DNA of 64,000 nucleotides, taken from the NCBI RefSeq assembly GCF_058153355.1, contig NZ_CM177019.1; one strand, given 5' to 3'. Position 1 is the first letter of the stretch, and each line of letters begins with the position of its first letter. A program made the position numbers and the translations under genes. The notes beneath the pieces were generated by a model. The model ran no database searches. It had not been told where the DNA came from and saw nothing but the letters and a program-made list of their open reading frames with translations. Positions 1,924 through 44,042 of this stretch are shown here, one piece after another.

Positions 1924-2841
1924 ATGCCACTCTCAAAGCTCTGGGCAGGTTCACTGGTTTTGTTGGCAGCCGTGAGCCTGCCGCTACAGGCGGCTTCCCC
2001 CGTTAAAGTCGGTTCGAAAATCGATACCGAAGGCGCGCTACTCGGCAACATTATTTTGCAAGTGCTGGAAAGCCACGGCGTACCGACGGTGAATAAAGTC
2101 CAGTTGGGAACCACGCCGGTGGTGCGCGGGGCGATTACTTCCGGTGAACTGGATATCTATCCGGAATATACCGGCAATGGCGCGTTTTTCTTTAAAGATG
2201 AAAACGATGCGGCGTGGAAAAATGCCGGGCAAGGCTACGAGAAAGTCAAAAAGCTCGATGCAGAACAAAACAAGTTAATCTGGCTGACGCCTGCGCCTGC
2301 AAATAACACCTGGACCATCGCCGTGCGTCAGGATGTTGCAGAGAAAAACAAACTCACTTCGCTTGCCGACCTGAGTCGTTATCTGAAAGACGGTGGCACC
2401 TTCAAACTGGCGGCCTCAGCAGAGTTTATCGAACGCGCCGATGCCTTACCCGCTTTTGAAAAAGCCTATGGCTTTAAGCTCAGTCAGGATCAGTTGCTGT
2501 CACTGGCCGGTGGCGACACTGCGGTGACAATCAAAGCTGCTGCCCAGCAAACATCCGGCGTTAATGCGGCGATGGCTTACGGCACCGACGGCCCGGTCGC
2601 GGCGCTGGGGCTGCAAACCTTAAGCGATCCGCAAGGCGTGCAACCTATCTACGCGCCTGCACCAGTGGTGCGTGAATCGGTGTTGAAGGAGTATCCGCAA
2701 ATGGCACAGTGGCTACAGCCAGTCTTCGCCAGCCTCGATGCAAAAACATTGCAGCAACTGAATGCCAGCATTGCTGTGGAAGGACTGGATGCCAAAAAAG
2801 TGGCTGCCGACTACCTGAAACAAAAAGGGTGGACGAAGTAA
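1924..2841 (+). CDS. osmF: Glycine betaine ABC transporter periplasmic binding protein OsmF (YehZ)
   Basis: 305 aa ORF with signal peptide; first gene of the osmF-yehYXW block. Confidence 0.9.
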   Translation: MPLSKLWAGSLVLLAAVSLPLQAASPVKVGSKIDTEGALLGNIILQVLESHGVPTVNKVQLGTTPVVRGAITSGELDIYPEYTGNGAFFFKDENDAAWKNAGQGYEKVKKLDAEQNKLIWLTPAPANNTWTIAVRQDVAEKNKLTSLADLSRYLKDGGTFKLAASAEFIERADALPAFEKAYGFKLSQDQLLSLAGGDTAVTIKAAAQQTSGVNAAMAYGTDGPVAALGLQTLSDPQGVQPIYAPAPVVRESVLKEYPQMAQWLQPVFASLDAKTLQQLNASIAVEGLDAKKVAADYLKQKGWTK

Positions 2842-2847
2842 TTTCCC

Positions 2848-4005
2848 GTGACTTATTTCCGTATTAATCCTGTTCTGGCGCTGCTGCTGTTGCTGACGGC
2901 AATCGCAGCGGCGCTGCCGTTTATCAGTTACGCGCCTAATCGTTTAGTCTCGGGTGAGGGGCGTCATCTCTGGCAGCTGTGGCCGCAAACGATCTGGATG
3001 CTGGTGGGCGTTGGTTGCGCCTGGCTGACCGCCTGTTTTATTCCCGGTAAAAAAGGCAGCATTTTTGCACTCATTCTGGCGCAATTCGTCTTCATATTGC
3101 TGGTGTGGGGCGCGGGAAAGGCGGCGACACAACTGGCGCAAAATGGCAGTGCGCTGGCGCGTACCAGCCTCGGCAGTGGTTTCTGGCTGGCTGCGGCGCT
3201 GGCATTGCTGGCCTGTAGCGATGCCATCCGCCGAATCTCCACGCATCCGCTGTGGCGCTGGTTGTTGCATATGCAGATTGCCATTATTCCGCTGTGGTTG
3301 CTGTACTCCGGTACGCTTAACGATCTTTCGCTAATGAAAGAATACGCCAACCGTCAGGATGTGTTTAATGACGCGCTGGCGCAACATCTGACGTTGCTGT
3401 TTGGTGCGGTGCTGCCTGCGTTAGTGATTGGTGTGCCGCTGGGCGTCTGGTGCTACTTTTCCACTGCGCGGCAGGGGGCGATTTTTTCTCTGCTGAATGT
3501 CATTCAGACCGTGCCTTCGGTGGCGCTCTTTGGCCTGTTGATTGCGCCGCTTGCCGCGCTGGTTACGGCCTTTCCGTGGCTGGGTAAGCTCGGCATAGCA
3601 GGAACCGGAATGACACCCGCACTGATTGCGCTGGTGCTCTATGCCTTGCTGCCGCTGGTGCGCGGTGTGGTAGTCGGCTTGAACCAGATCCCGCACGATG
3701 TGCTGGAGAGCGCCACAGCGATGGGCTTGAACGGAGCACAGCGATTCCTGCATGTGCAGCTACCGCTGGCGTTACCGGTATTTCTGCGCAGCCTGCGGGT
3801 GGTGATGGTGCAAACCGTCGGCATGGCGGTGATTGCGGCATTAATCGGCGCAGGTGGTTTTGGTGCGCTGGTTTTCCAGGGGCTGCTAAGCAGTGCCATT
3901 GATTTAGTGTTGCTGGGGGTGATCCCGGTAATCGTACTGGCGGTGCTGATCGACGCACTGTTCGATCTGGTTATCGCACTGCTGAAGGTGAAACGTAATG
4001 ATTGA
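2848..4005 (+). CDS. yehY: ABC transporter permease YehY
   Basis: 385 aa hydrophobic multi-TM ORF, GTG start 7 bp after osmF. Confidence 0.85.
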
Positions 4006-4924
4006 ATTTAGCCATGTCAGCAAACTGTTCGGCACACAAAAAGCCGTTAACGATCTCAATCTCAATTTTCAGGAAGGGAGTTTTTCGGTGCTGATTGGTA
4101 CATCAGGCTCCGGTAAATCCACCACATTGAAAATGATCAACCGTCTGGTAGAGCATGACAGCGGAGTGATCCGCTTTGCCGGAGAAGAAATTCGCTCGCT
4201 GCCAGTGCTGGAGTTACGCCGCCGGATGGGCTATGCCATTCAATCTATTGGCCTGTTTCCCCACTGGAGCGTGGCGCAAAACATTGCTACTGTGCCGCAA
4301 TTACAAAAATGGTCGCGGGCGCGGATCGACGACCGTATCGACGAATTAATGGCGCTACTGGGGCTGGAGCCGAATTTGCGTGAGCGTTATCCGCATCAGC
4401 TTTCCGGCGGTCAGCAGCAACGTGTGGGAGTGGCCCGCGCACTGGCTGCCGATCCGCAAGTCTTACTGATGGATGAACCCTTTGGCGCACTGGACCCGGT
4501 AACGCGCGGCGCGTTGCAACAAGAGATGACGCGTATTCACCGTTTGTTAGGGCGCACCATTGTGCTGGTCACTCATGATATTGATGAGGCGCTACGGCTG
4601 GCAGAACATCTGGTATTGATGGATCACGGTGAAGTGGTGCAGCAGGGCAATCCGCTGACGATGCTGACTCGTCCGGCGAATGAATTTGTCCGCCAGTTTT
4701 TTGGCCGTAGTGAACTGGGTGTGCGCCTGCTTTCGTTACGTAGCGTGGCGGATTATGTGCGCCGCGAAGAGCGGGCTGAAGGTGAGGCGCTGGCAGAAGA
4801 AATGACGCTACGCGATGCGCTCTCCCTGTTTGTCGCGCGGGGATGCGAAGTGCTGCCGGTGGTGAACACGCAGGGCCAGCCTTGCGGTACGCTGCATTTT
4901 CAGGATCTGCTGGTGGAGGCGTAA
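3998..4924 (+). CDS. yehX: ABC transporter ATP-binding protein YehX
   Basis: Walker [13 protein letters not shown] signature LSGGQQQR, Walker B LLMDEP; 8-bp overlap with yehY. Confidence 0.9.
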
Positions 4925-5748: not shown

Positions 5749-5807
5749 AATGCACTCCTTATGTTAACGAAAGGATTGTACAGTAAAGCGCATTTGTTAA
5801 CGAATCA

Positions 5808-6539
5808 TTAAATGCCGAGTGGGAAAATATCATGGCCTTGTTCCTGCCAACTGGTAAGTTGCTGCTGTTGGGCAGAGGTTCGATTTTCACCGCACCACAC
5901 CAGCAATGTACGGCCTTCGAACAGTTCAGGGCGTAGTTGATTGAGCGAGTGGGCGAGGACATCAATGCGCCAGCCCTGTTGACTGGCAATCCAGCCCTCT
6001 AGCCACAGACGGGTGGTATCCTGAATATTCCAGCCAACCACCAGCGCATCTTTACCCTGTTTTTTACGTGCCGAAGCCAGACAAATGGCGATGTAGTTGA
6101 TCAGTACGCCGTCGAGGATCGCCAGCAGCGCCTGGAGAGTCGGTTGTTGGCACTGAAGTCGTCGGCGCAGAGGAATAAACAGGTGCGTGGTGAGTGTCTG
6201 GGCGGGGTAATCCTGACCGCGCTCTTTGATCCACGTTCGCAGGCTATGCAGATTGCCGCTTTGCAGGTAAGTCAGTAATGTTTCTTGCTGATCGCGCCAG
6301 CCGTTCTGCACATCAACATTTTCATTACTGAGCAGCATTTTAACTTTGCTGACCTGCACGCCGTTGTCGATCCAGCGTTTGATCTCGCGGATCCGGTCAA
6401 TATCGGCATCATTGAACAGCCGATGACCGCCGTCTGTCCGTTGCGGTTTCAGCAATCCGTAACGCCTCTGCCACGCGCGTAACGTGACAGGGTTAATATC
6501 ACAAAGCAACGCCACTTCACCAATTGTGTAAAGCGCCAT
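5808..6539 (-). CDS. mlrA: MerR-family transcriptional regulator MlrA (curli/csgD regulator)
   Basis: 243 aa, N-terminal MerR-type HTH (YTIGEVALLCDINPVTLRAWQRRYGLL). Confidence 0.9.
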   Translation of the reverse strand: MALYTIGEVALLCDINPVTLRAWQRRYGLLKPQRTDGGHRLFNDADIDRIREIKRWIDNGVQVSKVKMLLSNENVDVQNGWRDQQETLLTYLQSGNLHSLRTWIKERGQDYPAQTLTTHLFIPLRRRLQCQQPTLQALLAILDGVLINYIAICLASARKKQGKDALVVGWNIQDTTRLWLEGWIASQQGWRIDVLAHSLNQLRPELFEGRTLLVWCGENRTSAQQQQLTSWQEQGHDIFPLGI

Positions 6540-6760
6540 CGTCTCACCCTTGCTCGCGAGGTCCCAGTTTAACTTTAGACGCAGTTTTGCGAACCAGGTA
6601 GTTTTGCCCGTTTTTTGTTCATCTATAGGGTGATTTTATTTTTGCCAGGCGATTTTGAGTGATCGTACTCACGAATTCTCATTTTTTTGCAAGAGTTCAA
6701 AGAAAGTTAAACGCAGGCAATGTATGTTACGCGTTTTAAAGGGAAGTGTGGTTTGCGGGT

Positions 6761-8446
6761 ATGTACGATTTTAATCTGGTGTTGCTGCTGCTTCAGCAGA
6801 TGTGCGTTTTTTTAGTCATTGCGTGGTTAATGAGTAAAACGCCATTATTCATACCGTTAATGCAGGTCACGGTTCGTCTGCCGCATAAATTTCTCTGCTA
6901 CATCGTCTTTTCCATCTTCTGCATCATGGGCACTTGGTTTGGGCTGCACATTGACGATTCTATTGCCAATACCCGTGCGATTGGTGCGGTAATGGGCGGC
7001 TTACTCGGCGGTCCGGTCGTCGGTGGGCTGGTTGGTCTGACCGGCGGGTTACATCGATATTCGATGGGGGGCATGACCGCGCTAAGTTGCATGATCTCGA
7101 CCATCGTTGAAGGATTGCTCGGCGGCCTGGTACACAGCATCCTGATCCGTCGCGGGCGCACTGATAAAGTCTTTAACCCCATTACCGCCGGTGCCGTCAC
7201 GTTCGTCGCTGAAATGGTGCAAATGTTGATCATCCTGGCGATCGCCCGACCTTATGAAGATGCGGTGCGTCTGGTGAGTAATATTGCTGCGCCAATGATG
7301 GTCACCAATACCGTCGGCGCGGCGCTGTTTATGCGTATATTGCTCGATAAACGCGCGATGTTTGAAAAATACACTTCGGCTTTTTCTGCTACTGCGCTGA
7401 AAGTGGCTGCCTCGACGGAAGGCATTTTGCGCCAGGGGTTTAACGAAGTGAACAGCATGAAAGTGGCACAGGTGCTGTATCAGGAGCTGGATATTGGTGC
7501 AGTCGCGATTACCGATCGAGAGAAATTGCTGGCCTTTACCGGAATTGGTGACGACCACCATTTACCTGGTAAACCGATTTCTTCGACTTACACCTTAAAA
7601 GCGATTGAAACCGGTGAAGTGGTCTACGCCGATGGCAACGAAGTGCCTTACCGTTGCTCGTTGCATCCGCAATGCAAACTGGGTTCGACGCTGGTGATTC
7701 CGTTGCGTGGTGAAAATCAGCGGGTGATGGGCACCATCAAATTGTATGAAGCCAAAAACCGTTTGTTCAGTTCAATCAATCGCACGCTGGGCGAGGGGAT
7801 TGCGCAACTGCTTTCGGCGCAGATCCTCGCCGGGCAATATGAGCGGCAAAAAGCGATGCTCACCCAGTCAGAGATCAAACTGCTTCACGCTCAGGTGAAC
7901 CCCCATTTTTTGTTTAATGCGCTTAACACCATTAAAGCGGTGATCCGCCGCGACAGCGAACAGGCCAGCCAGCTGGTGCAGTATCTTTCCACTTTTTTCC
8001 GCAAAAACTTAAAGCGGCCTTCGGAGTTTGTTACTCTCGCCGACGAAATTGAACATGTGAACGCTTATCTGCAAATTGAAAAGGCGCGCTTCCAGTCGCG
8101 GTTGCAGGTCAGCATTGCTATTCCGCAAGAATTATCCCAGCAGCAATTGCCCGCGTTTACCCTGCAACCGATTGTGGAAAACGCCATTAAACATGGGACA
8201 TCACAACTGCTGGATACAGGGCGAGTAGCAATCAGCGCCCGACGTGAGGGGCAACATTTGATGCTGGAGATCGAAGACAATGCTGGCTTGTATCAACCGG
8301 TAACCAATGCCAGCGGGCTGGGGATGAATCTGGTGGATAAGCGTTTACGTGAACGGTTTGGCGATGACTATGGGATAAGCGTCGCCTGTGAACCTGATAA
8401 TTACACCCGAATAACGTTACGACTGCCATGGAGGGACGAGGCATGA
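6761..8446 (+). CDS. btsS: LytS-type sensor histidine kinase BtsS (YehU)
   Basis: 561 aa from ATG 6761 (ORF track starts 15 bp upstream at GTG); multi-TM N-terminus and histidine kinase C-terminus. Confidence 0.9.
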
Positions 8447-9162
8447 TTAAAGTCTTAATTGTCGATGACGAACCGTTAGCACGGGAGAACCTGCGCGTAT
8501 TTTTGCAGGAGCAGAGTGATATTGAAATTGTCGGCGAGTGTTCAAACGCTGTAGAAGGGATCGGCGCGGTGCATAAACTGCGCCCGGACGTGCTGTTCCT
8601 CGATATCCAGATGCCGCGCATCAGTGGTCTGGAAATGGTGGGAATGCTCGACCCGGAACATCGTCCGTATATCGTTTTTCTCACCGCGTTTGACGAATAC
8701 GCCATTAAAGCCTTTGAAGAACATGCATTTGATTATCTCCTGAAGCCAATTGATGAAGCGCGGCTGGAGAAAACGCTGGCGCGTTTGCGTCAGGAGCGCA
8801 GCAAGCAGGATGTTTCGCTGTTACCGGAAAATCAACAGGCGCTGAAATTTATCCCTTGTACGGGGCATAGTCGGATTTATTTGCTGCAAATGAGAGATGT
8901 AGCATTTGTCAGCAGTCGGATGAGCGGTGTCTACGTTACCAGCCACGAAGGGAAAGAAGGTTTTACCGAACTGACTTTGCGCACCCTGGAGAGCCGTACA
9001 CCACTACTGCGCTGCCATCGTCAGTACCTGGTTAACCTCGCGCATTTACAGGAGATTCGTCTGGAAGATAACGGCCAGGCCGAGTTGATTTTACGTAATG
9101 GCTTAACTGTTCCGGTCAGCCGCCGCTATCTGAAAAGTTTAAAAGAGGCGATTGGCCTGTAA
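8443..9162 (+). CDS. btsR: LytTR-family response regulator BtsR (YehT)
   Basis: 239 aa from [17 protein letters not shown]; ATGA overlap with the btsS stop. Confidence 0.9.
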
Positions 9163-9208
9163 AAGACTGCTAAAATGGTTTTTTGCCTCATCAACACCTG
9201 AAGGCCTC

Positions 9209-9679
9209 ATGCTAAGTAACGATATTCTGCGCAGCGTGCGCTACATTTTGAAAGCCAATAATAACGACTTGGTGCGCATTCTGGCGCTGGGTAATGTCGA
9301 AGCCACTGCGGAACAGATCGCCGTCTGGCTACGCAAAGAAGACGAAGAAGGGTTTCAGCGTTGTCCGGACATTGTTCTGTCTTCATTCCTGAATGGCCTG
9401 ATTTATGAAAAACGTGGCAAGGATGAGTCAGCTCCGGCACTGGAGCCGGAACGTCGCATTAATAACAACATCGTGCTGAAAAAATTACGTATCGCGTTTT
9501 CGCTGAAAACTGATGATATTCTGGCGATCCTTACCGAACAGCAGTTCCGCGTTTCGATGCCGGAAATTACGGCGATGATGCGTGCACCGGATCATAAAAA
9601 CTTTCGTGAATGCGGCGATCAATTCATGCGTTATTTTCTGCGTGGGCTGGCAGCGCGCCAGCATGTGAAGAAAAGCTAA
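9209..9679 (+). CDS. yehS: DUF1456 protein YehS
   Basis: 156 aa from MLSNDILRSV; ORF track starts further upstream. Confidence 0.8.
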   Translation: MLSNDILRSVRYILKANNNDLVRILALGNVEATAEQIAVWLRKEDEEGFQRCPDIVLSSFLNGLIYEKRGKDESAPALEPERRINNNIVLKKLRIAFSLKTDDILAILTEQQFRVSMPEITAMMRAPDHKNFRECGDQFMRYFLRGLAARQHVKKS

Positions 9680-9686
9680 GACGGGT

Positions 9687-9718
9687 ATGGCGGCCATGCG
9701 AAGAACATGGCCGCCGAC
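9687..9718. terminator. Bidirectional hairpin between convergent yehS and yehR
   Basis: Stem atggcggccatg / catggccgccga with loop cgaagaa. Confidence 0.5.
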
Positions 9719-9721
9719 AGA

Positions 9722-10183
9722 TTATTTCACTTCTTTAAAACCAGCGGCTTTCATCACCAGTTCCATTTGCGCCATAGTGATACCTTTTTTGGCATCTTCA
9801 GCAGAAACGTTGATACCTGAAATACCCTGCAGGGCTTTAAAATCAACTTTTTCCATATCGATAGTCACGTTTTCCTGAGCATAAGTATCGGTAAAGGTTA
9901 ATTTTTCTTCAACGCCAGGGATGTTTTTATATTTGGCACTTAACGGCTCAAGTGTCTTGGCAGCATCTTCTTTGGTGGTTGCACCAATGGAAGCAAATTG
10001 AATTTTGGTTTCAGAAGATTGCTTAAGAACCTTGTCACCTTTGTAGACATAGGTAATAGCAATTTCAGTACCGTTCAGATTAGCGCTAAATTTCTTCGAT
10101 TCTTCTTTGTCACCGCAGCCAGCAAGAGAGAAAACCAGAACAGATGCAACAACAAGGGAAAACAGCTTATTGAAAGCCTTCAT
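9722..10183 (-). CDS. yehR: Lipoprotein YehR (DUF1307)
   Basis: 153 aa from MKAFNKLFSLVVASVLVFSLAGC; lipobox LAGC. Confidence 0.85.
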   Translation of the reverse strand: MKAFNKLFSLVVASVLVFSLAGCGDKEESKKFSANLNGTEIAITYVYKGDKVLKQSSETKIQFASIGATTKEDAAKTLEPLSAKYKNIPGVEEKLTFTDTYAQENVTIDMEKVDFKALQGISGINVSAEDAKKGITMAQMELVMKAAGFKEVK

Positions 10184-10314
10184 GTAAAACTCCATTTTAT
10201 TTAATCAAGGAACTGGTGACCACACCAGGGGCCATATAGGATATGCCTAATACCTTGGCGTGAGCAGTCCGGAACTGGAGTAGAACTCTTTGTAAAAAGC
10301 ACTATTTGTCCTTG

Positions 10315-12306
10315 TTACTCAAGCAAGGTTAATAATTGTTCGCAAAGCAAAACGCAGTTATTCATTGCTTCTCCCCGTGCCTCGCCTTCTGTATTACGAA
10401 ATTGTCCCAACACATGTGCCAGCCGATAAAAACCCATCGCGGTGAGTTCATTGACCAGCAACTCTGACTGACTAATGGCACTCTGTTCCTGATAGCGCCA
10501 GCCATTATGGAGCAGTTGAATAAGCAACGCCTGACAGCGCATCAGTAACTGATGAGTGGTAGACGGTACAGGCAGAACGCTGGCAGAAGGTAGCGGTGCC
10601 ACAGGCGCAGTTTCTGCGTCCAGCGCCCAGGCGCGGGTTTTTGTCATCATCACCCGTGGTTCCAGTGTCAATTGCCCCTCTACAAAACTGACAAAGCCAG
10701 AAACCAGACTCACGGGGTCGTCTGTTTGTTGTAACAGAGCTGCCATGCGTTCAACGGCAAAAGGAGAACAGGCAGATGCCGGAAGGGATAACGTCAGCAC
10801 ATTATCGTCACCTTCGCCACTGATTACCTGCGCATCCAGTGTCTGCCGACTGCTGTCCCAACCGAGTGAAATGCACTCTTCTACTGGCAGAATAAATAAG
10901 TTATCGACCTGGTTAAGCTGTCGTATGGCGGCTGGCGGACGTTGGCGTAAATATTCCCGCAAAGCCACAATGCCCGGCTGGCGCAGTGGTGCGCTCAACA
11001 TTTGCCAGGCATCAGGCGACAGCGGAACAACACTGCTTAAGCGGTTGCGGGTAGCTAATAGCAACTCGCCATCAGCACTGCGTTTTGCTGCTTGTGAAAC
11101 AATTTGCCCACCCGCCAGCGCGCCAGCCTGAAAACTAAACAGCCGCCGTTTTGCCGCTGGAGAGTTATCCTGTTCACTTCTCGGCCAACTGCGCGAAAGA
11201 TGCAAAATACTGCCGGTGTCGGGATCGGTGAACCAGATGCGTAAACCATACCGCTCATTATCCTGCCAGCAACGCATACCTAGTGACACCAGCCGCAAAT
11301 GATCAAGCTTTGCTTCGCCAGCAATGCCTGCGCCAATGACCGTGCGCCACGGTATGGGCGGTACTTCACCGACACTGTCACGTCGCGCCATCTCTTGTGC
11401 ACTGTTCAAGCGACTGGTTAACGCCGCAAGCTGGCACAAGCATTTTCCGGCATGATAGTAGCTGGCGCGGGCGTGGAAGGCATCAACGCTTGCCCGTAGC
11501 TGTCGTAGTGATTCACTTACCCAACGCCAGTTGCAGCGTTCCGCCGCTTGCTGCGCGCGGCTGAAAGCGGCCTCGTAGTGGATTGACGGTTGGCTGATGC
11601 CTCCCAGCCATAATGCCTGACTTAATTGCTGAACATATTGACGACATGCTTTACCTTCGTCGCTGGAAAACGGATCGTCAGATGATGTGACGTGTTCACT
11701 GTGCATCTGCCAGATCAAATGAGTAAATTCTGCTTGTTGATTTTTGGCCTCGACGAAGGCCTGCACAGCCAGTGCTACGTGTTCACACAGCGTTCCTTCA
11801 ATACAATCACAACGGGCGAAACGAATGCTGCTGCGGGAATAAAAACGCACATCGCTCATCGGTAAGCGGGCAGAGGGAATTTCGCCCGGCGTGCAGAACA
11901 ACTCAATGGTGATGCCTTTAGCGACCAGCGCCTGCGCGCGTTTGCGCGTGGTATTGGGCAGGGTAGCCAGTTCTTCCTGCCAGATTGCCGGATCCCACTC
12001 TTCTTCTTTTTCCGTAGGCTGGGCGGTGGCACAAAGTCGTTGATAACTTAACACCAGCATCACGCGATGACGGCACATGCCGCTGGCCCCGCAGCTGCAT
12101 TGAGCCTCTTTCAGTGCCTGACTGTTCGCCAGCCGGGTACGGACACCGTCACTGAACGTGGCGATTAAAGCGCCGTTCTCATGGCAGATTTCCGGGACAT
12201 TGCCATTTTCCAGTTCCTTAAGGCTGCGCTTCACAAAACCAGCATTGCTTAACGCCGTCAGGGCCTGCGGTGTCAGTTCTAATAATTCCGGACGTAGTGA
12301 ATTCAT
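10315..12306 (-). CDS. yehQ: SWIM zinc-finger protein YehQ
   Basis: Start taken at MNSLRPELL (ATGA overlap with yehP stop); two CxC-x(n)-CxH signatures (CSCGASGMCRH and CDCIEGTLCEH). Confidence 0.75.
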   Translation of the reverse strand: MNSLRPELLELTPQALTALSNAGFVKRSLKELENGNVPEICHENGALIATFSDGVRTRLANSQALKEAQCSCGASGMCRHRVMLVLSYQRLCATAQPTEKEEEWDPAIWQEELATLPNTTRKRAQALVAKGITIELFCTPGEIPSARLPMSDVRFYSRSSIRFARCDCIEGTLCEHVALAVQAFVEAKNQQAEFTHLIWQMHSEHVTSSDDPFSSDEGKACRQYVQQLSQALWLGGISQPSIHYEAAFSRAQQAAERCNWRWVSESLRQLRASVDAFHARASYYHAGKCLCQLAALTSRLNSAQEMARRDSVGEVPPIPWRTVIGAGIAGEAKLDHLRLVSLGMRCWQDNERYGLRIWFTDPDTGSILHLSRSWPRSEQDNSPAAKRRLFSFQAGALAGGQIVSQAAKRSADGELLLATRNRLSSVVPLSPDAWQMLSAPLRQPGIVALREYLRQRPPAAIRQLNQVDNLFILPVEECISLGWDSSRQTLDAQVISGEGDDNVLTLSLPASACSPFAVERMAALLQQTDDPVSLVSGFVSFVEGQLTLEPRVMMTKTRAWALDAETAPVAPLPSASVLPVPSTTHQLLMRCQALLIQLLHNGWRYQEQSAISQSELLVNELTAMGFYRLAHVLGQFRNTEGEARGEAMNNCVLLCEQLLTLLE

Positions 12307-15721: not shown

Positions 15722-16810
15722 TCACGGCAGGCGGTGGCGAGCTTGATAATAAGCCTGCCAGTGAGCTTCTTTATGTGTAGCGACACGTTGTTCGAAGTAA
15801 CGGCGCAGACGTGCGCGATCTTCTTCGTTATCTTTGACGATGGTTCCGGCAATACAGTCCACCAGGTCGGCTGGCTCCCCCGCGCGATTCGCTAAAAACC
15901 AGGCGCGGACGCCCACGGCGTGGGCCACGTTAACGGCTTCAGCGGTGGACATAATCGCTGTAAGGGTATCCATTGACGTTTTCTTTTCGCCGTTGGCACG
16001 CAGATCGCGGAAGGTGCGTACCAGTAACTCAAGTACCGCGTCAGGCACTTTATGCGGAATACCGCTATGGGCCAACAAACGCGCCGAAGCACTGGCGACC
16101 AGTTCCAGCTCCTGGGCGAAATCCATAATCGGAAAAACCGTTTCAAAATCGAATCGGCGTTTTAGTGCCGCGCTCATTTCATTAACGCCGCGATCGCGGG
16201 TATTGGCGGTGACAATAATATTAAAGCCTTCCCGCGCATAGAGCTGACTGGCTTCACCAGTGAGTTCCGGCACCGTCATAACCCTGTCAGAAAGCATACC
16301 TAACAGACAGTCTTGTACTTCCAGTGGTGTACGCGTTATCTCTTCAAAACGGACAATTTTGCCGTCGCGCATTCCCTGGTAGAGCGGGGCAGGGACCAGC
16401 GCTTCCGTTGACGGACCATGATTAATAAGCAGGGCGTAGTTCCAGCCGTACTTGATTTGATCTTCGGTGGTAGATGCGCCGCCCTGGATAGTTAACCCAG
16501 CATCGCCGCTAATAGCGGTTGCCAGTAATTCAGACAGGAGAGATTTTGCGGTGCCAGGTTCCCCCACCAACATCAAACCGCGCCCGGTAGCAAGAGTGAC
16601 TAACATGCGTTCGACAGCGGAGGGACTAATCACGACTTTACGGCTGATATTTTGCGCGCTATCGCCAAGAATAAAAGAACGGGCCGCAGGCAAACTTAAC
16701 TGCCAACCGGGCGGGCAAGGTGCGTTATCATTTTGCTTTAATTTTGCCAGTTCATCGGCGTATAACACAGCGGCAGGCGGACGCTGCAGATGATTATTCT
16801 GCGGTGACAT
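15722..16810 (-). CDS. yehL: MoxR-type AAA+ ATPase YehL
   Basis: 362 aa; Walker A GEPGTAKS; first gene of the yehLMPQ array. Confidence 0.85.
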   Translation of the reverse strand: MSPQNNHLQRPPAAVLYADELAKLKQNDNAPCPPGWQLSLPAARSFILGDSAQNISRKVVISPSAVERMLVTLATGRGLMLVGEPGTAKSLLSELLATAISGDAGLTIQGGASTTEDQIKYGWNYALLINHGPSTEALVPAPLYQGMRDGKIVRFEEITRTPLEVQDCLLGMLSDRVMTVPELTGEASQLYAREGFNIIVTANTRDRGVNEMSAALKRRFDFETVFPIMDFAQELELVASASARLLAHSGIPHKVPDAVLELLVRTFRDLRANGEKKTSMDTLTAIMSTAEAVNVAHAVGVRAWFLANRAGEPADLVDCIAGTIVKDNEEDRARLRRYFEQRVATHKEAHWQAYYQARHRLP

Positions 16811-37086: not shown

Positions 37087-38121
37087 ATGAAAATTCGCAT
37101 AATGTTATTTATATTAATTATGATGGTAATGCCTGTGAGTTATGCAGCATGTTATGGAGAGTTATCTGCCCAGCATAATTTTGCTGTTCAGGGGGATTTT
37201 GCACTTACTCAAACACAAATGGCAACATATGAGCATAATTTTAATGATTCGTCATGCGTGAGTACAAATACTATCACCCCTATGAGCCCGTCGGATATTA
37301 TTGTTGGACTTTATAACGATACCATTAAATTAAATTTACATTTTGAATGGATCAATAAAAACAACATCACGTTGTCAAATAATCAGACCAGTTTCACCAA
37401 TGGTTATTCGGTAACGGTGACACCTGCGGCCAGTAATGCAAAAGTGAATGTTTCTGCGGGGGGCGGCGGTTCAGTGATGATTAATGGTGTTGCGACATTA
37501 TCCAGTGCTTCATCATCGACACGCGGGAGTGCTGCAGTACAATTTTTACTGTGTTTATTCGGTGGCAAGTCATGGGATGCATGTGTAAATAGCTACAGAA
37601 ATGCATTGGCACAAAATGCAGGTGTCTATTCCTTTAATCTGACATTGTCATACAACCCGATAACCACAACCTGCAAACCGGACGATTTATTAATTACTTT
37701 AGAGAGTATTCCCGTTTCACAATTACCAGCTACAGGTAACAAAGCAACAATAAATAGTAACAAAGGGGATATTGTTCTGCGTTGTAAAAACTTATTAGGT
37801 CAACAAAATCAAACATCACGGAAAATGCAGGTGTATTTATCAAGTTCTGACTTGTTAACCAACAGCAACACAATACTGAAAGGTGCGGAAGATAATGGCG
37901 TAGGATTTATTCTTGAAAGTAATGGTTCTCCAGTCACACTTTTAAATATCACTAACAGCAGTAAAGAATACACAAATTTAAAAGAAATTGCGGCAAAGTC
38001 AAAACTTACAGATACAACGGTTTCAATTCCGATAACTGCCAGTTACTACGTCTACGATACAAATAAAATTAAATCTGGCGCACTGGAGGCAACCGCATTA
38101 ATCAACGTGAAATACGACTAA
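37087..38121 (+). CDS. yehA: Fimbrial adhesin-like protein YehA
   Basis: 344 aa with signal peptide; last gene of the yehDCBA array. Confidence 0.8.
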   Translation: MKIRIMLFILIMMVMPVSYAACYGELSAQHNFAVQGDFALTQTQMATYEHNFNDSSCVSTNTITPMSPSDIIVGLYNDTIKLNLHFEWINKNNITLSNNQTSFTNGYSVTVTPAASNAKVNVSAGGGGSVMINGVATLSSASSSTRGSAAVQFLLCLFGGKSWDACVNSYRNALAQNAGVYSFNLTLSYNPITTTCKPDDLLITLESIPVSQLPATGNKATINSNKGDIVLRCKNLLGQQNQTSRKMQVYLSSSDLLTNSNTILKGAEDNGVGFILESNGSPVTLLNITNSSKEYTNLKEIAAKSKLTDTTVSIPITASYYVYDTNKIKSGALEATALINVKYD

Positions 38122-38176
38122 TAACAAGCAAGACGAGCAAGTGGCTAATAATAAAAAATAACAAGGTGTCTGCATT

Positions 38177-38204
38177 TCCCCCTCATGATGAGGGGGCTTT
38201 TTTT
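38177..38204. terminator. Bidirectional terminator between yehA and rcnB
   Basis: Hairpin ccccctca-tga-tgaggggg with T-run on the plus side and A-run on the other. Confidence 0.65.
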
Positions 38205-38541
38205 AGCGATGATAAAAAATCTCACCATCGTAGGCTTTAATGATTTTACCGTCGGTGTCGCTGATCAACACGTACGCGCCACCCATATAGGTCCAGTGCG
38301 TCCCGGCATCAGGCGCGGGCAGGTTACGTAACTGCCACTGCTTAATGTTGTACTCATCGGTGCGGTACATCTCTGGGACGGTATCGCCTGGTTTGAAATG
38401 CTTAAAGTCAGCAATGAAACTGCTTAACTCATACTTAGAAATTCCCGAGGTATTGGTCGAACCCGCGGTGGCTGGTGCGGCCCAGGCGGCACTGGTAACC
38501 AGCAAAAGCACACCCAGCAACATCTTATTTTTAATGGTCAT
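38203..38541 (-). CDS. rcnB: Periplasmic Ni/Co homeostasis protein RcnB (YohN)
   Basis: 112 aa from MTIKNKMLLGVLLLVTSAAWA; ORF track extends a further 60 codons upstream. Confidence 0.85.
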   Translation of the reverse strand: MTIKNKMLLGVLLLVTSAAWAAPATAGSTNTSGISKYELSSFIADFKHFKPGDTVPEMYRTDEYNIKQWQLRNLPAPDAGTHWTYMGGAYVLISDTDGKIIKAYDGEIFYHR

Positions 38542-38654
38542 AAACTCTCCACTTTGGGGATCTGTAATATCAGTCGCATATCTTTCCTGCCATACAATAT
38601 AACTGACAAGCGATATTTTGTTAGTGATCCCATGATTTCGTAAAAAGTGTAAAT

Positions 38655-38682
38655 GAAAGGATGCCCTAAAAGCATCCTTAGC
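38655..38682 (-). terminator. Probable rcnA terminator hairpin
   Basis: aaggatgc-cctaaaa-gcatcctt; downstream T-run on the minus strand is weak. Confidence 0.35.
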
Positions 38683-38759
38683 GAGCAGAGAGCCAGCGGA
38701 AATAGCTGATTTAAGAATCATCCTGGGCTGAAGATAACATGCAAGCCTAAAGGATTGAG

Positions 38760-39581
38760 TTATCGCATTATGCCCATAAAGCCATGTACGCCCATATACA
38801 CACCAACTAAGCCAATCAACAGACTGGAAAAATAGGGGGCGCGTTTAGCGAGAGTGTTAAATCCGCTCCAGCGTTTTGCGACCTGCTGAACGCTGATTGC
38901 TGCGCCAATGCCTACGGTGACCAGCGTTAACGCAAGGCCAATGCTGAAACTGACGACCAGTGTTGCGCCCAGTGTCAGGGCTTTCAACTGAATGCAAATC
39001 AACAGCACGGTAATTGCTGCCGGGCAGGGGATAAGGCCACCGGTTAAGCCAAATAACAAAATTTGCCAGTTGGTGACCTCTCTACCATCGAAGCGTCGTT
39101 TAATGTCATTGGCATGGGCTCGTGCATGAGCATCCTGATACTCCCCATGTTCGTGATGGTGATGATGTCCATGGTCGTGGTGATCTTCGTGATCGTGATG
39201 ATACTCATGATCATGCCCGTGCATATTCTCCAGCCAGTTGCGTTCGCCGCGCCAGGTACGCCAGAACATCCAGAACGCGGTGCCAATAATGATCACCGCG
39301 GAAATCAACTGGAGCCACGGTTCTGCAGATTGAGCAGTAAAACGTTTGCTGATCACCATCCCGCCAAAGGCAATCAACCAGACCACCGCGGTATGCGAAA
39401 TGGTTGCTGCCAGTCCGAGCATCACCGCCTGTTTAATGGTGCCTTTGATGGCGATGATAAACGCCGCCATCATCGTTTTTGAGTGCCCTGGTTCCAGGCC
39501 ATGAAGCGCACCAAGTAAGATGGCGCTGGGGATGAAGAACCAGGCATTTCCTTGCTGAAGAAGAGTGGTAAATTCGGTCAT
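38760..39581 (-). CDS. rcnA: Nickel/cobalt efflux protein RcnA (YohM)
   Basis: 273 aa membrane protein with His-rich loop HGHDHEYHHDHEDHHDHGHHHHHEHGE. Confidence 0.9.
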   Translation of the reverse strand: MTEFTTLLQQGNAWFFIPSAILLGALHGLEPGHSKTMMAAFIIAIKGTIKQAVMLGLAATISHTAVVWLIAFGGMVISKRFTAQSAEPWLQLISAVIIIGTAFWMFWRTWRGERNWLENMHGHDHEYHHDHEDHHDHGHHHHHEHGEYQDAHARAHANDIKRRFDGREVTNWQILLFGLTGGLIPCPAAITVLLICIQLKALTLGATLVVSFSIGLALTLVTVGIGAAISVQQVAKRWSGFNTLAKRAPYFSSLLIGLVGVYMGVHGFMGIMR

Positions 39582-39618
39582 GATAATAATTCTTAGTATT
39601 AATTCGGCAATCCGATTC

Positions 39619-39652
39619 TACTCCCCCCCAGTACCTGATACTACCCCCAGTA
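39619..39652. promoter_or_regulatory. Two RcnR operator sites in the rcnA-rcnR divergent region
   Basis: TACT-C7-AGTA at ~39619..39633 and TACT-ACCCCC-AGTA at ~39639..39652. Confidence 0.7.
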
Positions 39653-39700
39653 GAATAATAGTGCTATGATTTTTCATGTTCTTGTTAACCAGGTGTTGCC

Positions 39701-39973
39701 ATGTCTCATACAATCCGTGATAAACAGAAACTGAAAGCGCGTGCCAGTAAGATTCAGGGCCAGGTCGTGGCGCTCAAGAAAATGCTCGACGAGCCGCACG
39801 AATGCGCAGCTGTTCTACAACAGATTGCTGCTATCCGTGGCGCGGTAAACGGCCTGATGCGCGAAGTGATTAAGGGGCATCTGACGGAACACATCGTTCA
39901 CCAGGGGGATGAGCTAAAACGTGAAGAAGATCTGGATGTCGTTCTGAAGGTGCTGGATTCTTATATCAAATGA
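39701..39973 (+). CDS. rcnR: Ni/Co-responsive repressor RcnR (YohL)
   Basis: 90 aa, [22 protein letters not shown]... Confidence 0.9.
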
Positions 39974-40082
39974 AAGTGCCTAATATGGCCGTAGTTGAGG
40001 CAATAAATAGAGGGACAAGTGACGTTAAGCTGAATTAGAGTAAATGGCGTGAGGACACACGCCATTCGAGGATATAGTTTGA

Positions 40083-40397
40083 TTAATTTTCGAAAAATTG
40101 CTTCACAGCCCAGCCACCATGACCACCTGGAGTTATGAATGAAACAAAACCTTTGTCATCGACGCTCTGGATTTCTACTGTCATTGATTCATCTAACACG
40201 CGACATTTATTGGATGTAATGAGACTCAGCATAGCCTGTTGGTCATTGTCCTGGATGTAACTGATCATCTCGTAAAAGTCAGTTAACTTTTTACAGTTAA
40301 ATGTACCTTCTTTAAGTGTTGCGCTGTCTCCGTGACTTAGTGCGAATGCATTTGGCATCATTGCCACAAAGATGACGGTAACGAGTAGTTTTTTCAT
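40083..40397 (-). CDS. Hypothetical small secreted protein (104 aa, two Cys in mature part)
   Basis: Signal peptide MKKLLVTVIFVAMMPNAFA; low-GC island; no family recognised. Confidence 0.55.
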   Translation of the reverse strand: MKKLLVTVIFVAMMPNAFALSHGDSATLKEGTFNCKKLTDFYEMISYIQDNDQQAMLSLITSNKCRVLDESMTVEIQSVDDKGFVSFITPGGHGGWAVKQFFEN

Positions 40398-40406
40398 TGT
40401 AGCCTC

Positions 40407-40754
40407 TTATAATTCAGAACATTCACTGATGTTGTAAGTGCCTTTTCTACCATCATCGTTTACGAGATGTAGCACGAAGATGATGGGATTGGCATCAATG
40501 AAAGATACAGAGACGTTCCCGCTTTCGGTGCTATACATCTTTGCAATCTGTTTTTCACCAATATATGAAAGATCCCAACTCACTCCGTTCAAGCTAAAAT
40601 GCATCTGTTTGCCGTCAATATCGATGGAGGATTGTGCCGTAACGGTTTTCCCATTGCTGCCAATTTGACCCTGCTGAAGAGCATCACATTTATAGGAGCT
40701 TGCATAAGTAAATAGAGGTAGTAGCAGAAGTGCAGCAAAAATTTTACTCTTCAT
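40407..40754 (-). CDS. Hypothetical small secreted protein (115 aa, Cys near both ends of mature part)
   Basis: Signal peptide MKSKIFAALLLLPLFTYA; 9 bp upstream of the 104-aa ORF on the same strand. Confidence 0.55.
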   Translation of the reverse strand: MKSKIFAALLLLPLFTYASSYKCDALQQGQIGSNGKTVTAQSSIDIDGKQMHFSLNGVSWDLSYIGEKQIAKMYSTESGNVSVSFIDANPIIFVLHLVNDDGRKGTYNISECSEL

Positions 40755-41807
40755 ATTTTCCCTTTGCTTGGATTTGAGTTACCTATTTTGGGGTAGTCAT
40801 TATAAAACTATTAATTAGTAAAATGAACAAGTTTTCATTTGTTTAGTAATGGTATTGTTTAGGTTTGAAATTATTACGTACTTTCATAGCAATAGGTTGG
40901 ATAAACAGCAGTTCAGAGAACAAGTTGCACTATCTACATACTTTCCCGCTTTCCATTGTATGTTAGGTAATAGATAGCCTTTGCCCGTAAGACTAAAAAT
41001 ATTAGAAATGACTCATTCGAATACCTTCTATTCACCTTAATATAGGTTTGATTATTGTAATCGTTTAATGTGTCTTATGGATTTTTTCCTACTTTTCATT
41101 TGCATAATATAGGGGGCACAGCATGCTCTTGAAATTAATTATTAAGATATTTAAATTTTACAGCACACAACTACTTTTCGTTGTCTTATGTGTTGAACGT
41201 ACTTCGAGTATAGGTAGGGTTGTATATATATTGCGTGGGTAGAGTTAGAATAGAGGAGGCATCATTTATAGAATATTCAAGAACGTTAACCTGTGATCAA
41301 TAAATAAAAATATCAAATGGTGTTCAAACATATTTTTCTATGAAAAATCCAGCCATCTATGATGAATTTTTAGATCCATTTTAATTAAAGTATGATTATG
41401 AACCAATATTTAGCCAAGAATGGTGGTATAGCGCGTATCCAATGACACCGGAAAACGCATCTATGAAGTCCTTGTTTATCTCTATAAGAGGAAATCAACA
41501 CTAATAAAATATAGTGATGTAACACATCGAGCAGGTTGCTCTGATGCTGGTCTTCAACTGTGGCTTAAACAGCTATCAAACTTCGGTGTTATTGAGATGA
41601 AAGAATTATCTTTCTCAACTTTCAATCTCAAAAAGCTAGAGGAAATAGACCTTAATTATTCCACTCTCTAAACTTATCTCTTTATTTAAAGTAAAAATGA
41701 AAATATTATGGTATCAGCTACGTGGTGGTAACTGGTGTTTATGATCATAGGTACACATATACAGGGAACCCTGGAAAACAAAAGTAATATATTGATGATT
41801 TCGTTTG

Positions 41808-42047
41808 TTATAACTTCGTGGTATCAAGTCCGGCGGCTTTGAGTCGCTCGGTAAGATTTCTCATTTTGCTGAACTCTGTACCAAAGCTGGCTTTAAGTCC
41901 TACACCTTCGCAAAACTCTTTTGCCGTGACGTTTTTAAGATGGTCAGCGTATTTGATCATCTGGAGGTGCATTTCCATCGTTTGGCTATTTCGTGGTGCG
42001 CTGCTAATGGCTTGCTTAATGTTCTCGTAGATCTGGGTTTCTGTCAT
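41808..42047 (-). CDS. Hypothetical 79-aa protein, possible helix-turn-helix
   Basis: AGGTGAG Shine-Dalgarno ~8 nt upstream; HTH call is by eye only. Confidence 0.4.
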   Translation of the reverse strand: MTETQIYENIKQAISSAPRNSQTMEMHLQMIKYADHLKNVTAKEFCEGVGLKASFGTEFSKMRNLTERLKAAGLDTTKL

Positions 42048-42271
42048 TTTTTATCTCACCTATCAAATTTAGATAAATAATATAAATTAGATAAATAAGA
42101 TAATCAATAGTTTTTACCATATGAATAATGGATGTGGATTGTTTCTTTTTCATTTCTGATATGGAGTACAAAATGGGGTCACAATGAAGAAGCGATGAAT
42201 GGAGGCGAGCTTGCATCTGCAAGCCTCTTCCCCTAATCTGGCACAAAATATAGAGATTCAACCAAACGACT

Positions 42272-42392
42272 CGGGGTGCCCTTCTGCGTGAAGGCTGAGA
42301 AATACCCGTATCACCTGATCTGGATAATGCCAGCGTAGGGAAGTCACGGACCACCAGGTCATTGCTTCTTCACGTTATGGCAGGAGCAAACT
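42272..42392 (+). ncRNA. TPP (thiamine pyrophosphate) riboswitch in the thiM leader
   Basis: THI-box core ...ggggtgcccttctgcgtgaaggctgagaaatacccgtatcacctgatctggataatgccagcgtagggaa... directly upstream of thiM ATG. Confidence 0.9.
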
Positions 42393-43181
42393 ATGCAAGT
42401 CGACCTGCTGAGTTCCGCGCAATCTGCGCACGCGTTACACCTTTTTCACCAACATTCCCCTCTTGTGCATTGCATGACCAATGATGTGGTGCAAACCTTT
42501 ACTGCCAATACCTTGCTGGCGCTCGGTGCATCGCCAGCGATGGTTATCGAAACCGAAGAAGCCAGTCAGTTTGCGGCTATCGCCAGTGCCTTGCTAATTA
42601 ACGTCGGCACGCAGACGCAGCCACGCGCACAGGCGATGCGTGCTGCCGTTGAACAGGCAACACACTCTCAAACCCCCTGGACGCTTGATCCGGTCGCGGT
42701 TGGCGCACTCGATTATCGTCGCCGTTTTTGTCATGAACTTTTATCTTTTAAACCGGCAGCGATACGTGGTAATGCTTCGGAAATCATGGCATTAGCTGGC
42801 GTTGCTAATGGTGGACGGGGAGTGGACACCACTGACGCCGCAGCTAATGCGATACCCGCTGCACAAACACTGGCACGGGAAACTGGCGCAATCGTCGTGG
42901 TCACAGGCGAGGTGGATTATGTTACCGATGGTCGTCGCACCGTTGGCATTCACGGCGGCAATCCGTTAATGACCAAAGTGGTAGGAACTGGCTGTGCATT
43001 ATCGGCAGTTGTCACTGCCTGTTGCGCATTACCAGGCGATATGCTGGAAAATATCGCATCTGCCTGTCACTGGATGAAACAAGCCGGAGAACGCGCCGTC
43101 GCCAGAAGTGAAGGGCCTGGCAGTTTTGTTCCCCATTTTCTTGATGCGCTCTGGCAATTGACGAAGGAGGTGCAGGCATGA
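42393..43181 (+). CDS. thiM: Hydroxyethylthiazole kinase
   Basis: 262 aa ORF following the TPP riboswitch. Confidence 0.9.
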
Positions 43182-43978
43182 AACGGATTAACGCTCTGAC
43201 AATTGCAGGCACTGATCCCAGTGGTGGTGCGGGGATTCAGGCAGATCTCAAAACGTTCTCGGCACTTGGTGCTTATGGTTGCTCAGTGATTACTGCACTG
43301 GTGGCGCAAAATACCCGTGGCGTACAGTCGGTGTATCGCATTGAGCCTGATTTTGTCGCCGCCCAGCTCGATTCGGTGTTCAGCGATGTGCGAATCGACA
43401 CCACTAAAATCGGTATGTTGGCGGAAACCGATATTGTTGAAGCGGTGGCAGAACGGTTGCAACATTATCAGATCCAAAACGTGGTACTCGACACCGTTAT
43501 GCTGGCAAAAAGCGGCGACCCTCTGCTTTCACCTTCGGCGGTTGCCACGCTGCGCAGTCGATTATTGCCACAGGTTTCATTAATAACGCCAAACTTGCCC
43601 GAAGCAGCTGCCTTGCTCGACGTGCCACACGCGCGCAACGAACAGGAAATGCTGGAACAAGGACGAGCGCTGTTAGCGATGGGCTGTGGCGCAGTGCTGA
43701 TGAAAGGCGGTCATCTGGATGATGAGCAAAGCCCGGACTGGCTGTTTACCCGAGAGGGGGAACAACGGTTTACTGCACCGCGCATTATGACCAAAAACAC
43801 CCACGGCACTGGTTGTACGATCTCTGCGGCGTTGGCTGTACTACGCCCGCGCCATACAAACTGGGCTGACACCGTTCAGGAGGCAAAAAGCTGGCTTTCA
43901 TCGGCGTTAGCCCAGGCCGACACGCTGGAAGTTGGTCACGGTATTGGTCCGGTTCACCACTTCCACGCGTGGTGGTGA
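43178..43978 (+). CDS. thiD: Hydroxymethylpyrimidine / phosphomethylpyrimidine kinase
   Basis: 266 aa; ATGA overlap with thiM. Confidence 0.9.
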
Positions 43979-44042
43979 GCACCTTACTATAGCTGCTTTG
44001 GTTATTGTCAGTATTTGGCGCTGACATTCAGGGATGAAACCA

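Follow-up and report, generated by a model that had tools for sequence, protein, structure and literature searches.

The DNA analysed here is a 64,000-nucleotide stretch of Escherichia coli sequence, hereafter called the window, in which the genes rcnB, rcnA and rcnR finish at position 39973 and thiM and thiD begin at 42393. In most E. coli genomes rcnR and the riboswitch that precedes thiM are separated by a spacer of 90 bp, an arrangement referred to below as the empty site. In the window this native spacer has been replaced by an islet of 2,287 bp (39972-42258, 36% GC, with edges taken from alignment with an empty-site genome), whose left edge falls at the stop codon of rcnR itself. A megablast search of 5,426 complete E. 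coli genomes recovered the islet from 339 of them, with O157:H7 and O55:H7 among the carriers, and the empty site from nearly all of the non-carrier genomes; a plasmid search found the same islet in one 438-kb plasmid record.

Three genes are called in the islet by PGAP, all of them on the minus strand. An intact gene at 40083-40397 encodes a protein of 104 residues with a signal-peptide-like N terminus, labelled 'outer membrane protein' by PGAP, and is followed by an equally intact gene at 40407-40754 for a secreted-type hypothetical protein of 115 residues, which belongs to the accessory cargo of the element family described below. The third gene (41808-42047) specifies a 79-residue HTH_73 protein (PF24718, Pfam E = 6.5e-31) and is the conserved right-end gene of that family. 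The 104-residue protein is 82% identical to its homolog in the element of PEC389, the 115-residue protein is 83% identical to the PEC389 homolog and 42% identical to a 115-residue protein of the HB42 element, and the HTH_73 protein is 99% identical to the HB42 copy and 95% identical to the PEC389 copy. Searches with the 104- and 115-residue proteins returned nothing from Pfam and NCBIfam and only self-like families of unknown function from PHROGs, and a profile search of IMG/VR with the latter protein returned no relative. To the right of the HTH_73 gene lies the element right end (42048-42258), the last ~75 nt of which are conserved: this block, directly 5' of the riboswitch, is kept in all occupied sites that were compared and reads ...GAGCTTGCATCTGCAAGCC.CTTCCCCTAA.CTGGCACAAAATATAGAGATTCAA. 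It is followed on the plus strand by the thiM TPP riboswitch at 42259-42358 (Rfam RF00059, 71.2 bits for a match over 42262-42358).

The kilobase between the 115-residue gene and the HTH_73 gene (40755-41807) is the subject of this work. The original prediction, made from the sequence alone, described it as an AT-rich non-coding stretch, and so it is: its GC content is 31.8%, compared with 49.2% across the window, and PGAP places no gene there in a 99.9%-identical genome or in five of six other islet-bearing genomes (the sixth, outside that count, is TB06051). The stretch is not uniform. It consists of the region upstream of the 115-residue gene, the tail of an integrase gene, a 259-bp orphan segment, the tail of a replication-initiator gene and a pseudogene.

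The pseudogene occupies 41398-41671 on the plus strand, where tblastn, alignments, translations and a fold model identify a full-length but frameshifted copy of a gene for a winged-helix protein of 81-92 residues. Intact homologs are present in two other E. coli, as an 81-residue gene at the same locus in HB42 and as a 92-residue gene in E32. Frame 1 (41398-41445) translates as MNQYLAKNGGIARIQ followed by a stop, and codons 1-15 of the intact homolog are recognisable in it; frame 2 is open without interruption over 41441-41671, 76 codons to the ancestral stop, and ends ...KYSDVTHRAGCSDAGLQLWLKQLSNFGVIEMKELSFSTFNLKKLEEIDLNYSTL-stop. In tblastn searches of the window with the intact proteins, frame 2 was matched by the HB42 protein with E = 2e-35 and by the E32 protein, over residues 16-92 of 92, with E = 1e-37, a similarity to real genes well outside what chance would produce. 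DNA alignment places a single frame-breaking lesion, a net change of -2 nt, within about 41421-41443, near codons 9-16; a scrambled stretch surrounds it, and the N-terminal 15 codons are themselves scrambled. The same lesion is present in O157:H7 and in all eight of the islets compared. Since frame 1 stops at 41445 and frame 2 has no ATG, GTG or TTG before 41597, the winged-helix product cannot be made.

The open reading frames on which the prediction was built (41398-41445, 41442-41504 and a frame ending at 41671) lie where it had put them, and the search for an intact homolog that it had proposed both found such homologs and located the frameshift. It had read these frames as pieces, in three frames, of one gene broken by frameshifts. 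The fragments are real and belong to a single gene, intact homologs spanning both of the frames used, but only two frames are involved and there is one lesion, not several. The third frame is a matter of chance: the plus-strand, frame-3 ORF at 41442-41504 (MTPENAS..., in full MTPENASMKSLFISIRGNQH) overlaps the homologous frame 2, found no match in database searches and is absent as an exact sequence from a collection of 15 billion proteins, and it was rejected as a gene piece.

Database relatives of the intact winged-helix protein are E. coli 'hypothetical proteins' only, the O157-type frame-2 piece has itself been deposited as a 'partial' protein, and a search of Pfam, PHROGs and NCBIfam with the 92-residue protein returned no family. 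An AlphaFold2 model of the intact protein, of moderate confidence and based on a shallow alignment (mean pLDDT 67, about 77 in the core), has the topology H1-S1-H2-H3-S2-S3, with helices at residues 3-30, 39-46 and 50-62 and strands at 36-38, 66-70 and 75-80, and its top Foldseek matches in the PDB are the DNA-binding domains of CodY (C-terminal), ArsR, HlyU and MarR, the best with E = 1e-3. The ancestral protein is thus predicted to have been a small winged-helix DNA-binding protein, which would make 'regulator', one of the two labels originally offered, a reasonable one; the other, 'mobile-element protein', is right because the gene adjoins a replication initiator in phage-like elements. The copy in the window combines whole-length homology to an intact gene with a broken frame and, within the small sample of eight islets considered below, relaxed constraint, as expected of a pseudogene. 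Between it and the convergent HTH_73 gene lies a spacer (41672-41807), to which related elements are homologous as far as about 41740 and HB42 throughout.

To the left of the pseudogene, 41244-41384 on the plus strand represent the dead C-terminal tail, the last ~46 codons with an in-frame stop, of an O/DnaD-like replication initiator. Residues 199-244 of the E32 Rep protein align here with 37% identity (tblastn, E = 1e-8), and the translation, ...CDQ-stop-IKISNGVQTYFSMKNPAIYDEFLDPF-stop, has kept the ancestral ...D.PF-stop end. The parent is a protein of 240-245 residues that neighbours the winged-helix gene in intact elements and matches Pfam HTH_36 as well as the replication-initiator, O-like and DnaD-like families of PHROGs, weakly in each case (E = 1e-5 to 1e-8). 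In 10 of the 16 IMG/VR loci fetched, DNA homology to the window begins at 41247-41305, an onset that marks a deletion junction. The second dead tail (40892-40993, plus strand) comprises the last ~20-30 codons, again with an in-frame stop, of a tyrosine integrase, of which no intact gene remains. Residues 414-432 of the HB42 integrase match at 40928-40984 (79% identity, tblastn E = 4e-6), residues 413-431 of the PEC389 integrase match at the same place, and tblastx against the 3' end of the integrase gene of the XJ6-3 element extends the match to 40892; the tail translates as ...YLHTFPLSIVC-stop-VIDSLCP-stop. The rest of the whole window gave no other integrase match. At the left edge of the stretch, nucleotide homology with the PEC389 element runs 86 bp past the start codon of the 115-residue gene, to 40840, and this segment (40755-40840, minus strand), in which a TATAAT hexamer can be read on the minus strand, is probably the promoter and 5' UTR or leader of the operon formed by the 115- and 104-residue genes.

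The 259-bp orphan segment (40985-41243) has homologs only within islet-bearing genomes, and searches of E. coli genomes, of phages, of plasmids and of the fetched elements found no relative outside the islet carriers. When 40755-41245 was used as the query, a distant-mode search of E. coli genomes returned islet carriers and, from 41246 on, matches to the Rep tail, but nothing else; a phage collection gave no match; and blastn and tblastx against HB42, PEC389, XJ6-3, E32 and the 16 IMG/VR loci gave the integrase tail only. We assume that the segment is DNA that lay downstream of the lost integrase. It includes a plus-strand ORF for 39 residues at 41123-41242, named 'Z3270' in the original EDL933 annotation, which has no homologs and is left uncalled by PGAP. 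A type I toxin was considered for this ORF and rejected, given the lack of homologs and a composition typical of AT-rich DNA; a literature search for Z3270-Z3272 found nothing relevant.

The exact rcnR-thiM site is occupied in other E. coli by relatives of 7.7-11 kb that carry a tyrosine integrase at the left and HTH_73 at the right. The HB42 element, a form present in 81 genomes, measures 7,732 bp and is flanked by a perfect 82-bp direct repeat corresponding to the first 82 nt of the riboswitch. Its order is tyrosine integrase, HNH endonuclease, 115-residue protein, cI-like HTH protein, serine invertase, a 1.8-kb ORF-free stretch, a 61-residue gene, replication initiator, the 81-residue winged-helix gene and HTH_73, followed by the riboswitch and thiM. 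A variant of ~11 kb in PEC389 encodes a TIR-domain protein, a recombinase, homologs of the 104- and 115-residue proteins in the same order and orientation as in the window, IS1 and DUF6998. In XJ6-3 the remnant islet is followed by a second, integrase-bearing element in tandem and then by thiM, so that tandem occupancy of the site does occur. The supplement of Hochhauser et al. 2023 (PMC10121019) includes an island named 'rcnR-thiM', for which it gives a size of 7,956 bp, 8 genes and a type IV restriction system; this is likely to be the counterpart of the HB42-type element. In the window, 42259-42340, the first 82 nt of the riboswitch, match the second copy of HB42 and of PEC389 with 100% identity and constitute the attachment-site repeat of the family, and the right junction of the islet is identical to those of HB42, PEC389 and XJ6-3; the interval 38000-44000 contains one riboswitch copy only, and the islet is not bounded by an attL/attR direct repeat. 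It is the 5' portion of the thiM TPP riboswitch that elements of this family use as their target. Literature searches for integration at a TPP riboswitch, and for thiM or rcnR together with an integrase, found nothing relevant.

The replication module occurs elsewhere too. In E32 the 92-residue gene is part of a phage-like element beside the tRNA-Thr gene downstream of proA; a phage-like element of 12 kb at this tRNA-Thr gene carries the module along with head, tape-measure and tail genes, and further examples come from IMG/VR contigs. Intact relatives have element-specific iterons and an AT-rich tract upstream of the replication initiator. A search of IMG/VR with the integrase returned one locus, which lacks a TPP riboswitch.

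The pattern of polymorphism agrees with the division into intact and decayed parts, although the sample, eight islets representing seven haplotypes, is small. Variable columns make up 5.1% of the pseudogene versus 0.9-1.7% of the three intact genes (Fisher p = 0.0004), a 4.4-fold higher density of variable sites than in the intact neighbours, and they account for 5.8% of 40755-40927 and 7.0% of the integrase tail. The ratio of synonymous to non-synonymous variable sites is 3:11 in the pseudogene and 8:2 in the intact genes (p = 0.011), with four synonymous and no non-synonymous sites in the 104-residue gene and two and one, respectively, in the 115-residue gene. The three intact genes thus appear to be still under purifying selection. 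The orphan segment and the Rep tail taken together (40985-41381) are intermediate at 2.3%, with 9 of 397 columns variable versus 34 of 640 in the other decayed parts (p = 0.016), a lower level that could hint at some constraint.

We conclude that the 1-kb stretch is, with high probability, non-functional debris inside the immobilised remnant of an integrative, phage-like element. That the islet might be the remnant of a mobile element had been suspected at the outset, and it is now borne out by intact relatives at the exact site, by their 82-bp repeat and by the dead integrase and Rep tails. The islet is read as an immobilised remnant because integrase-bearing elements of 7.7-11 kb with the 82-bp riboswitch repeat occupy the same site elsewhere. 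All that survives in the window is two accessory genes, the right end and three dead pieces, namely the tails of the integrase and replication-initiator genes and the frameshifted copy of the winged-helix gene; nothing is left of the body of the integrase, the left attachment copy or the native rcnR-thiM spacer. Having neither an integrase nor a left attachment site, the islet presumably can no longer excise, and drift of its unselected parts would have produced the frameshift, the in-frame stops and the surplus of non-synonymous changes.

The order of the pieces in the window (accessory genes, integrase tail, replication tail) appears best explained by integration of two elements in tandem, followed by deletions. 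Two elements would have integrated in tandem at the riboswitch; deletions would then have created two fusions, one between the left element's accessory genes and the right element's integrase tail, the other between the sequence following that integrase and the Rep tail; and a further deletion, from the rcnR stop codon to just past the 104-residue gene, would have removed the left attachment copy together with the spacer. A genome in the intermediate tandem-deletion state was sought and none was found. The same dead debris could instead go back to one element alone, either rearranged internally or altered when recombination with another variant replaced a cassette, and we regard this as a possible but clearly less probable history. 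The family is strongly mosaic, Rep proteins being 42-96% identical while the adjoining DNA is 84-94% identical; the window itself combines a Rep tail of the E32 type with a right end of the HB42 type; and HB42 and PEC389 carry unlike accessory cargo, all of which would suit such an exchange. Yet the window has its integrase tail on the right of the 115-residue gene and oriented away from it, whereas the single elements seen have theirs at the far left, and XJ6-3 provides a direct observation of tandem occupancy.

Two further explanations would give the stretch, or a part of it, a function of its own. The original prediction allowed that the region might hold an unannotated RNA instead, the ORF fragments being incidental, and a long, unannotated, AT-rich stretch with one sigma-70-like site on the plus strand (41129-41157) and with somewhat lower polymorphism in 40985-41381 than in the decayed DNA around it might be taken in that sense. 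An Rfam scan of 38000-44000 at E <= 1, however, returned only the thiM riboswitch and one sub-threshold chance match outside the region, and the folding energy of the orphan segment is no better than that of shuffled sequences on either strand (z = -0.17 and -0.84). Moreover, 40755-41800 contains no terminator-like site, promoter-like sites number 3 where shuffles have 9.0, remnants of protein genes make up most of the stretch, and the orphan part, being without homologs outside the islet, is without comparative support as well. Only short two-copy chance repeats were found when repeats were sought in the islet. A small or regulatory RNA in 40755-41807 is accordingly very improbable. Equally little credit is due to the idea that something here is still translated, be it the winged-helix gene, through an unconventional start or a programmed +1 shift of frame at CAA-UGA-C (41440-41446), or Z3270 as a real small-protein gene. 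It is true that the UGA closing frame 1 has a C after it and that frame 2 then runs open to the ancestral stop; but the sequence offers no slippery codon, a tRNA on CAA being unable to re-pair on AAU, and, unlike in prfB, there is no Shine-Dalgarno-like stimulator 3 nt upstream. With these absent and a substitution pattern that looks neutral, programmed +1 frameshifting was rejected, and the scrambled N-terminal codons and the excess of variable, mostly non-synonymous sites over the intact neighbours argue against expression of the gene. In favour of Z3270 are a frame that stays intact throughout the eight islets, an AGGGGG motif 6 nt ahead of it and variation that is synonymous only, although at just two sites; against it stand the absence of any homolog, a composition expected by chance in AT-rich DNA and the lack of a PGAP call.

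Debris of an integrative element is not an unusual thing for an E. coli genome to carry. The degraded prophages and genomic-island remnants of the species, such as cryptic prophages and the small islands of the O157:H7 type, resemble the islet in being AT-rich and in occupying a site at which most strains have no insertion, in having lost the integrase and one attachment site, in combining frameshifted or truncated genes with a few intact accessory ones, and in persisting vertically within a lineage. The islet differs from them in its very small size (2.3 kb), in an attachment site that is a riboswitch leader and not a tRNA or tmRNA gene, and in now standing where the downstream operon had its native promoter region. 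The island listed by Hochhauser et al. (PMC10121019) has the same position, and its listed size and type IV restriction resemble those of the HB42 element with its HNH endonuclease; as listed there, with the mobile-element type given as 'None', it is larger than the islet and bears an integrase, whereas the window has neither integrase nor HNH genes. The intact relatives also recall PICIs and other phage satellites, as small integrase-bearing islands with a replication module, a fixed attachment site and variable defence cargo (HNH/type IV restriction or a TIR protein). However, they have an integrase without AlpA or primase (Pri-Rep) domains, their initiator is of the HTH_36/O-like kind, the same replication module occurs beside head, tape-measure and tail genes, unlike in PICIs, and in the window the PICI core genes are all dead or absent. 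A likeness to the lambdoid O-type and DnaD-like modules of temperate phages is seen in the neighbour of the dead winged-helix gene, which in intact relatives matches PHROG initiators and HTH_36, and in the iterons and AT-rich tract upstream of it; it is tempered by the weakness of those matches and by the fact that the window keeps only the end of the gene.

There remains the question of whether the islet is more than debris. Since the native spacer has been deleted, the start of thiMD transcription presumably lies within the islet's conserved right end, and a role as the thiMD start region would also explain why that end has been retained; a strong sigma-70 consensus for thiM was sought there and none was found. 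Integration of a live element, for its part, would bring the integrase gene to ~75 nt downstream of a complete TPP aptamer and the native promoter of thiM, and with such a promoter and aptamer ahead of it, expression of the integrase, and hence excision, could respond to thiamine. The reading that unites these points, in which the right end is the sole thiMD promoter and the riboswitch attachment site makes the integrase and excision of the live family thiamine-responsive, is a speculative one to which we give a small chance, and the same holds for its lesser variant, in which the 259-bp orphan segment has a genuine product, either the small protein Z3270 or an sRNA.

Returning to the reading of the stretch as debris, the earlier inference was correct in substance, and what it had detected is ordinary decay of an island in a genome. 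A 1-kb unannotated gap in O157:H7 and in ~6% of E. coli is thereby explained as three dead gene pieces, which merit pseudogene or remnant labels, and the old 'Z3270' call is placed within orphan DNA; the value of the result lies mainly in annotation. The rcnR-thiM spacer emerges as an attachment site whose core is a TPP riboswitch and whose occupants are live elements with defence cargo, tandem arrays and a fixed remnant. In the strains that bear this remnant the native thiMD promoter region has been lost, and, if the promoter does lie in the right end of the islet, the thiamine-salvage operon thiMD of O157:H7 and the other E. coli carriers would rely on a promoter that belongs to the islet.

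The attachment site of this family of integrative elements is the thiM TPP riboswitch, with a perfect direct repeat of 82 bp. One attachment copy lies at 42259-42340 in the window, and riboswitch copies are found at 563-659 and 8296-8391 in the HB42 locus (L004) and at 5756-5851 and 16645-16742 in the PEC389 locus (L007). In the integrated state, the integrase start codon is situated about 75 nt downstream of thiM's native promoter and of an entire TPP aptamer, the upstream aptamer scoring 61–63 bits against Rfam, while the DNA upstream of thiM's own riboswitch becomes element-derived. We found no description in the literature of the thiM TPP riboswitch as an attachment site or of this integrase arrangement. 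XJ6-3 (L014, 2696-11216) carries a different, integrase-bearing second element of about 8.4 kb in tandem, with the remnant islet on one side and thiM on the other; besides a capsid fragment and a tape-measure gene, it has an additional tyrosine recombinase. This shows that strains with the remnant still have an active attachment site at the riboswitch.

Between the window and O157:H7, the islet's intact genes (40083-40754 and 41808-42047) differ by 0.6–0.8%, whereas the core flanks differ by 3.7% in rcnR (39701-39973) and 5.3% in thiM (42393-43181). Because of this disparity in sequence divergence, the integrase-less islet seems to have passed from one lineage to another after its flanks had already diverged, with homologous recombination as the presumed route. 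Within it, a plus-strand ORF of 39 residues at 41123-41242 (MLLKLIIKIFKFYSTQLLFVVLCVERTSSIGRVVYILRG), the hypothetical protein 'Z3270' of the original EDL933 annotation, is preceded by AGGGGG 6 nt to its 5' side. It is unbroken in all eight islets, and both of its variable sites are synonymous; it is absent from the PGAP annotation, and no homologs were found elsewhere.

Missing from the window is a stretch of 1.2–1.8 kb that lacks long ORFs in the intact relatives, bounded by a serine invertase on one side and a 61-aa gene on the other (HB42, 2586-4349; E32 locus L003, 1972-4073; also the 16 IMG/VR loci L015-L030; compared in alignment A4). Its left end contains element-specific iterons and an AT-rich tract, which together look like an origin. 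The roughly 1.1 kb that follows this left end shows about 92–100% identity even where the Rep proteins of the compared elements share only 42–63%. It closes with the promoter TTGACA-17-TAATAAT, a hairpin resembling a terminator, and the 61-aa gene. Rfam gave no match for this stretch in the intact relatives.

The replication module of this element family is also found in a 12-kb element of E32 (L008, 21328-33700) that adjoins the tRNA-Thr gene downstream of proA, together with genes for a major head protein, a tape-measure protein, tail/baseplate proteins and a tyrosine integrase; its neighbours are a reverse transcriptase and another integrase. The element's size falls short of that of a complete tailed phage, and a satellite or a degraded prophage are the candidate identities.

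The live elements at rcnR-thiM also carry cargo, which includes a TIR-domain protein of 871 aa and its 191-aa partner in PEC389 (7558-10756), and an HNH endonuclease in HB42 (6068-6793). The supplement of PMC10121019 lists an 'rcnR-thiM' island with a type IV restriction system, to which the HB42 endonuclease may correspond. The rcnR-thiM site therefore serves as a small defence-island locus.
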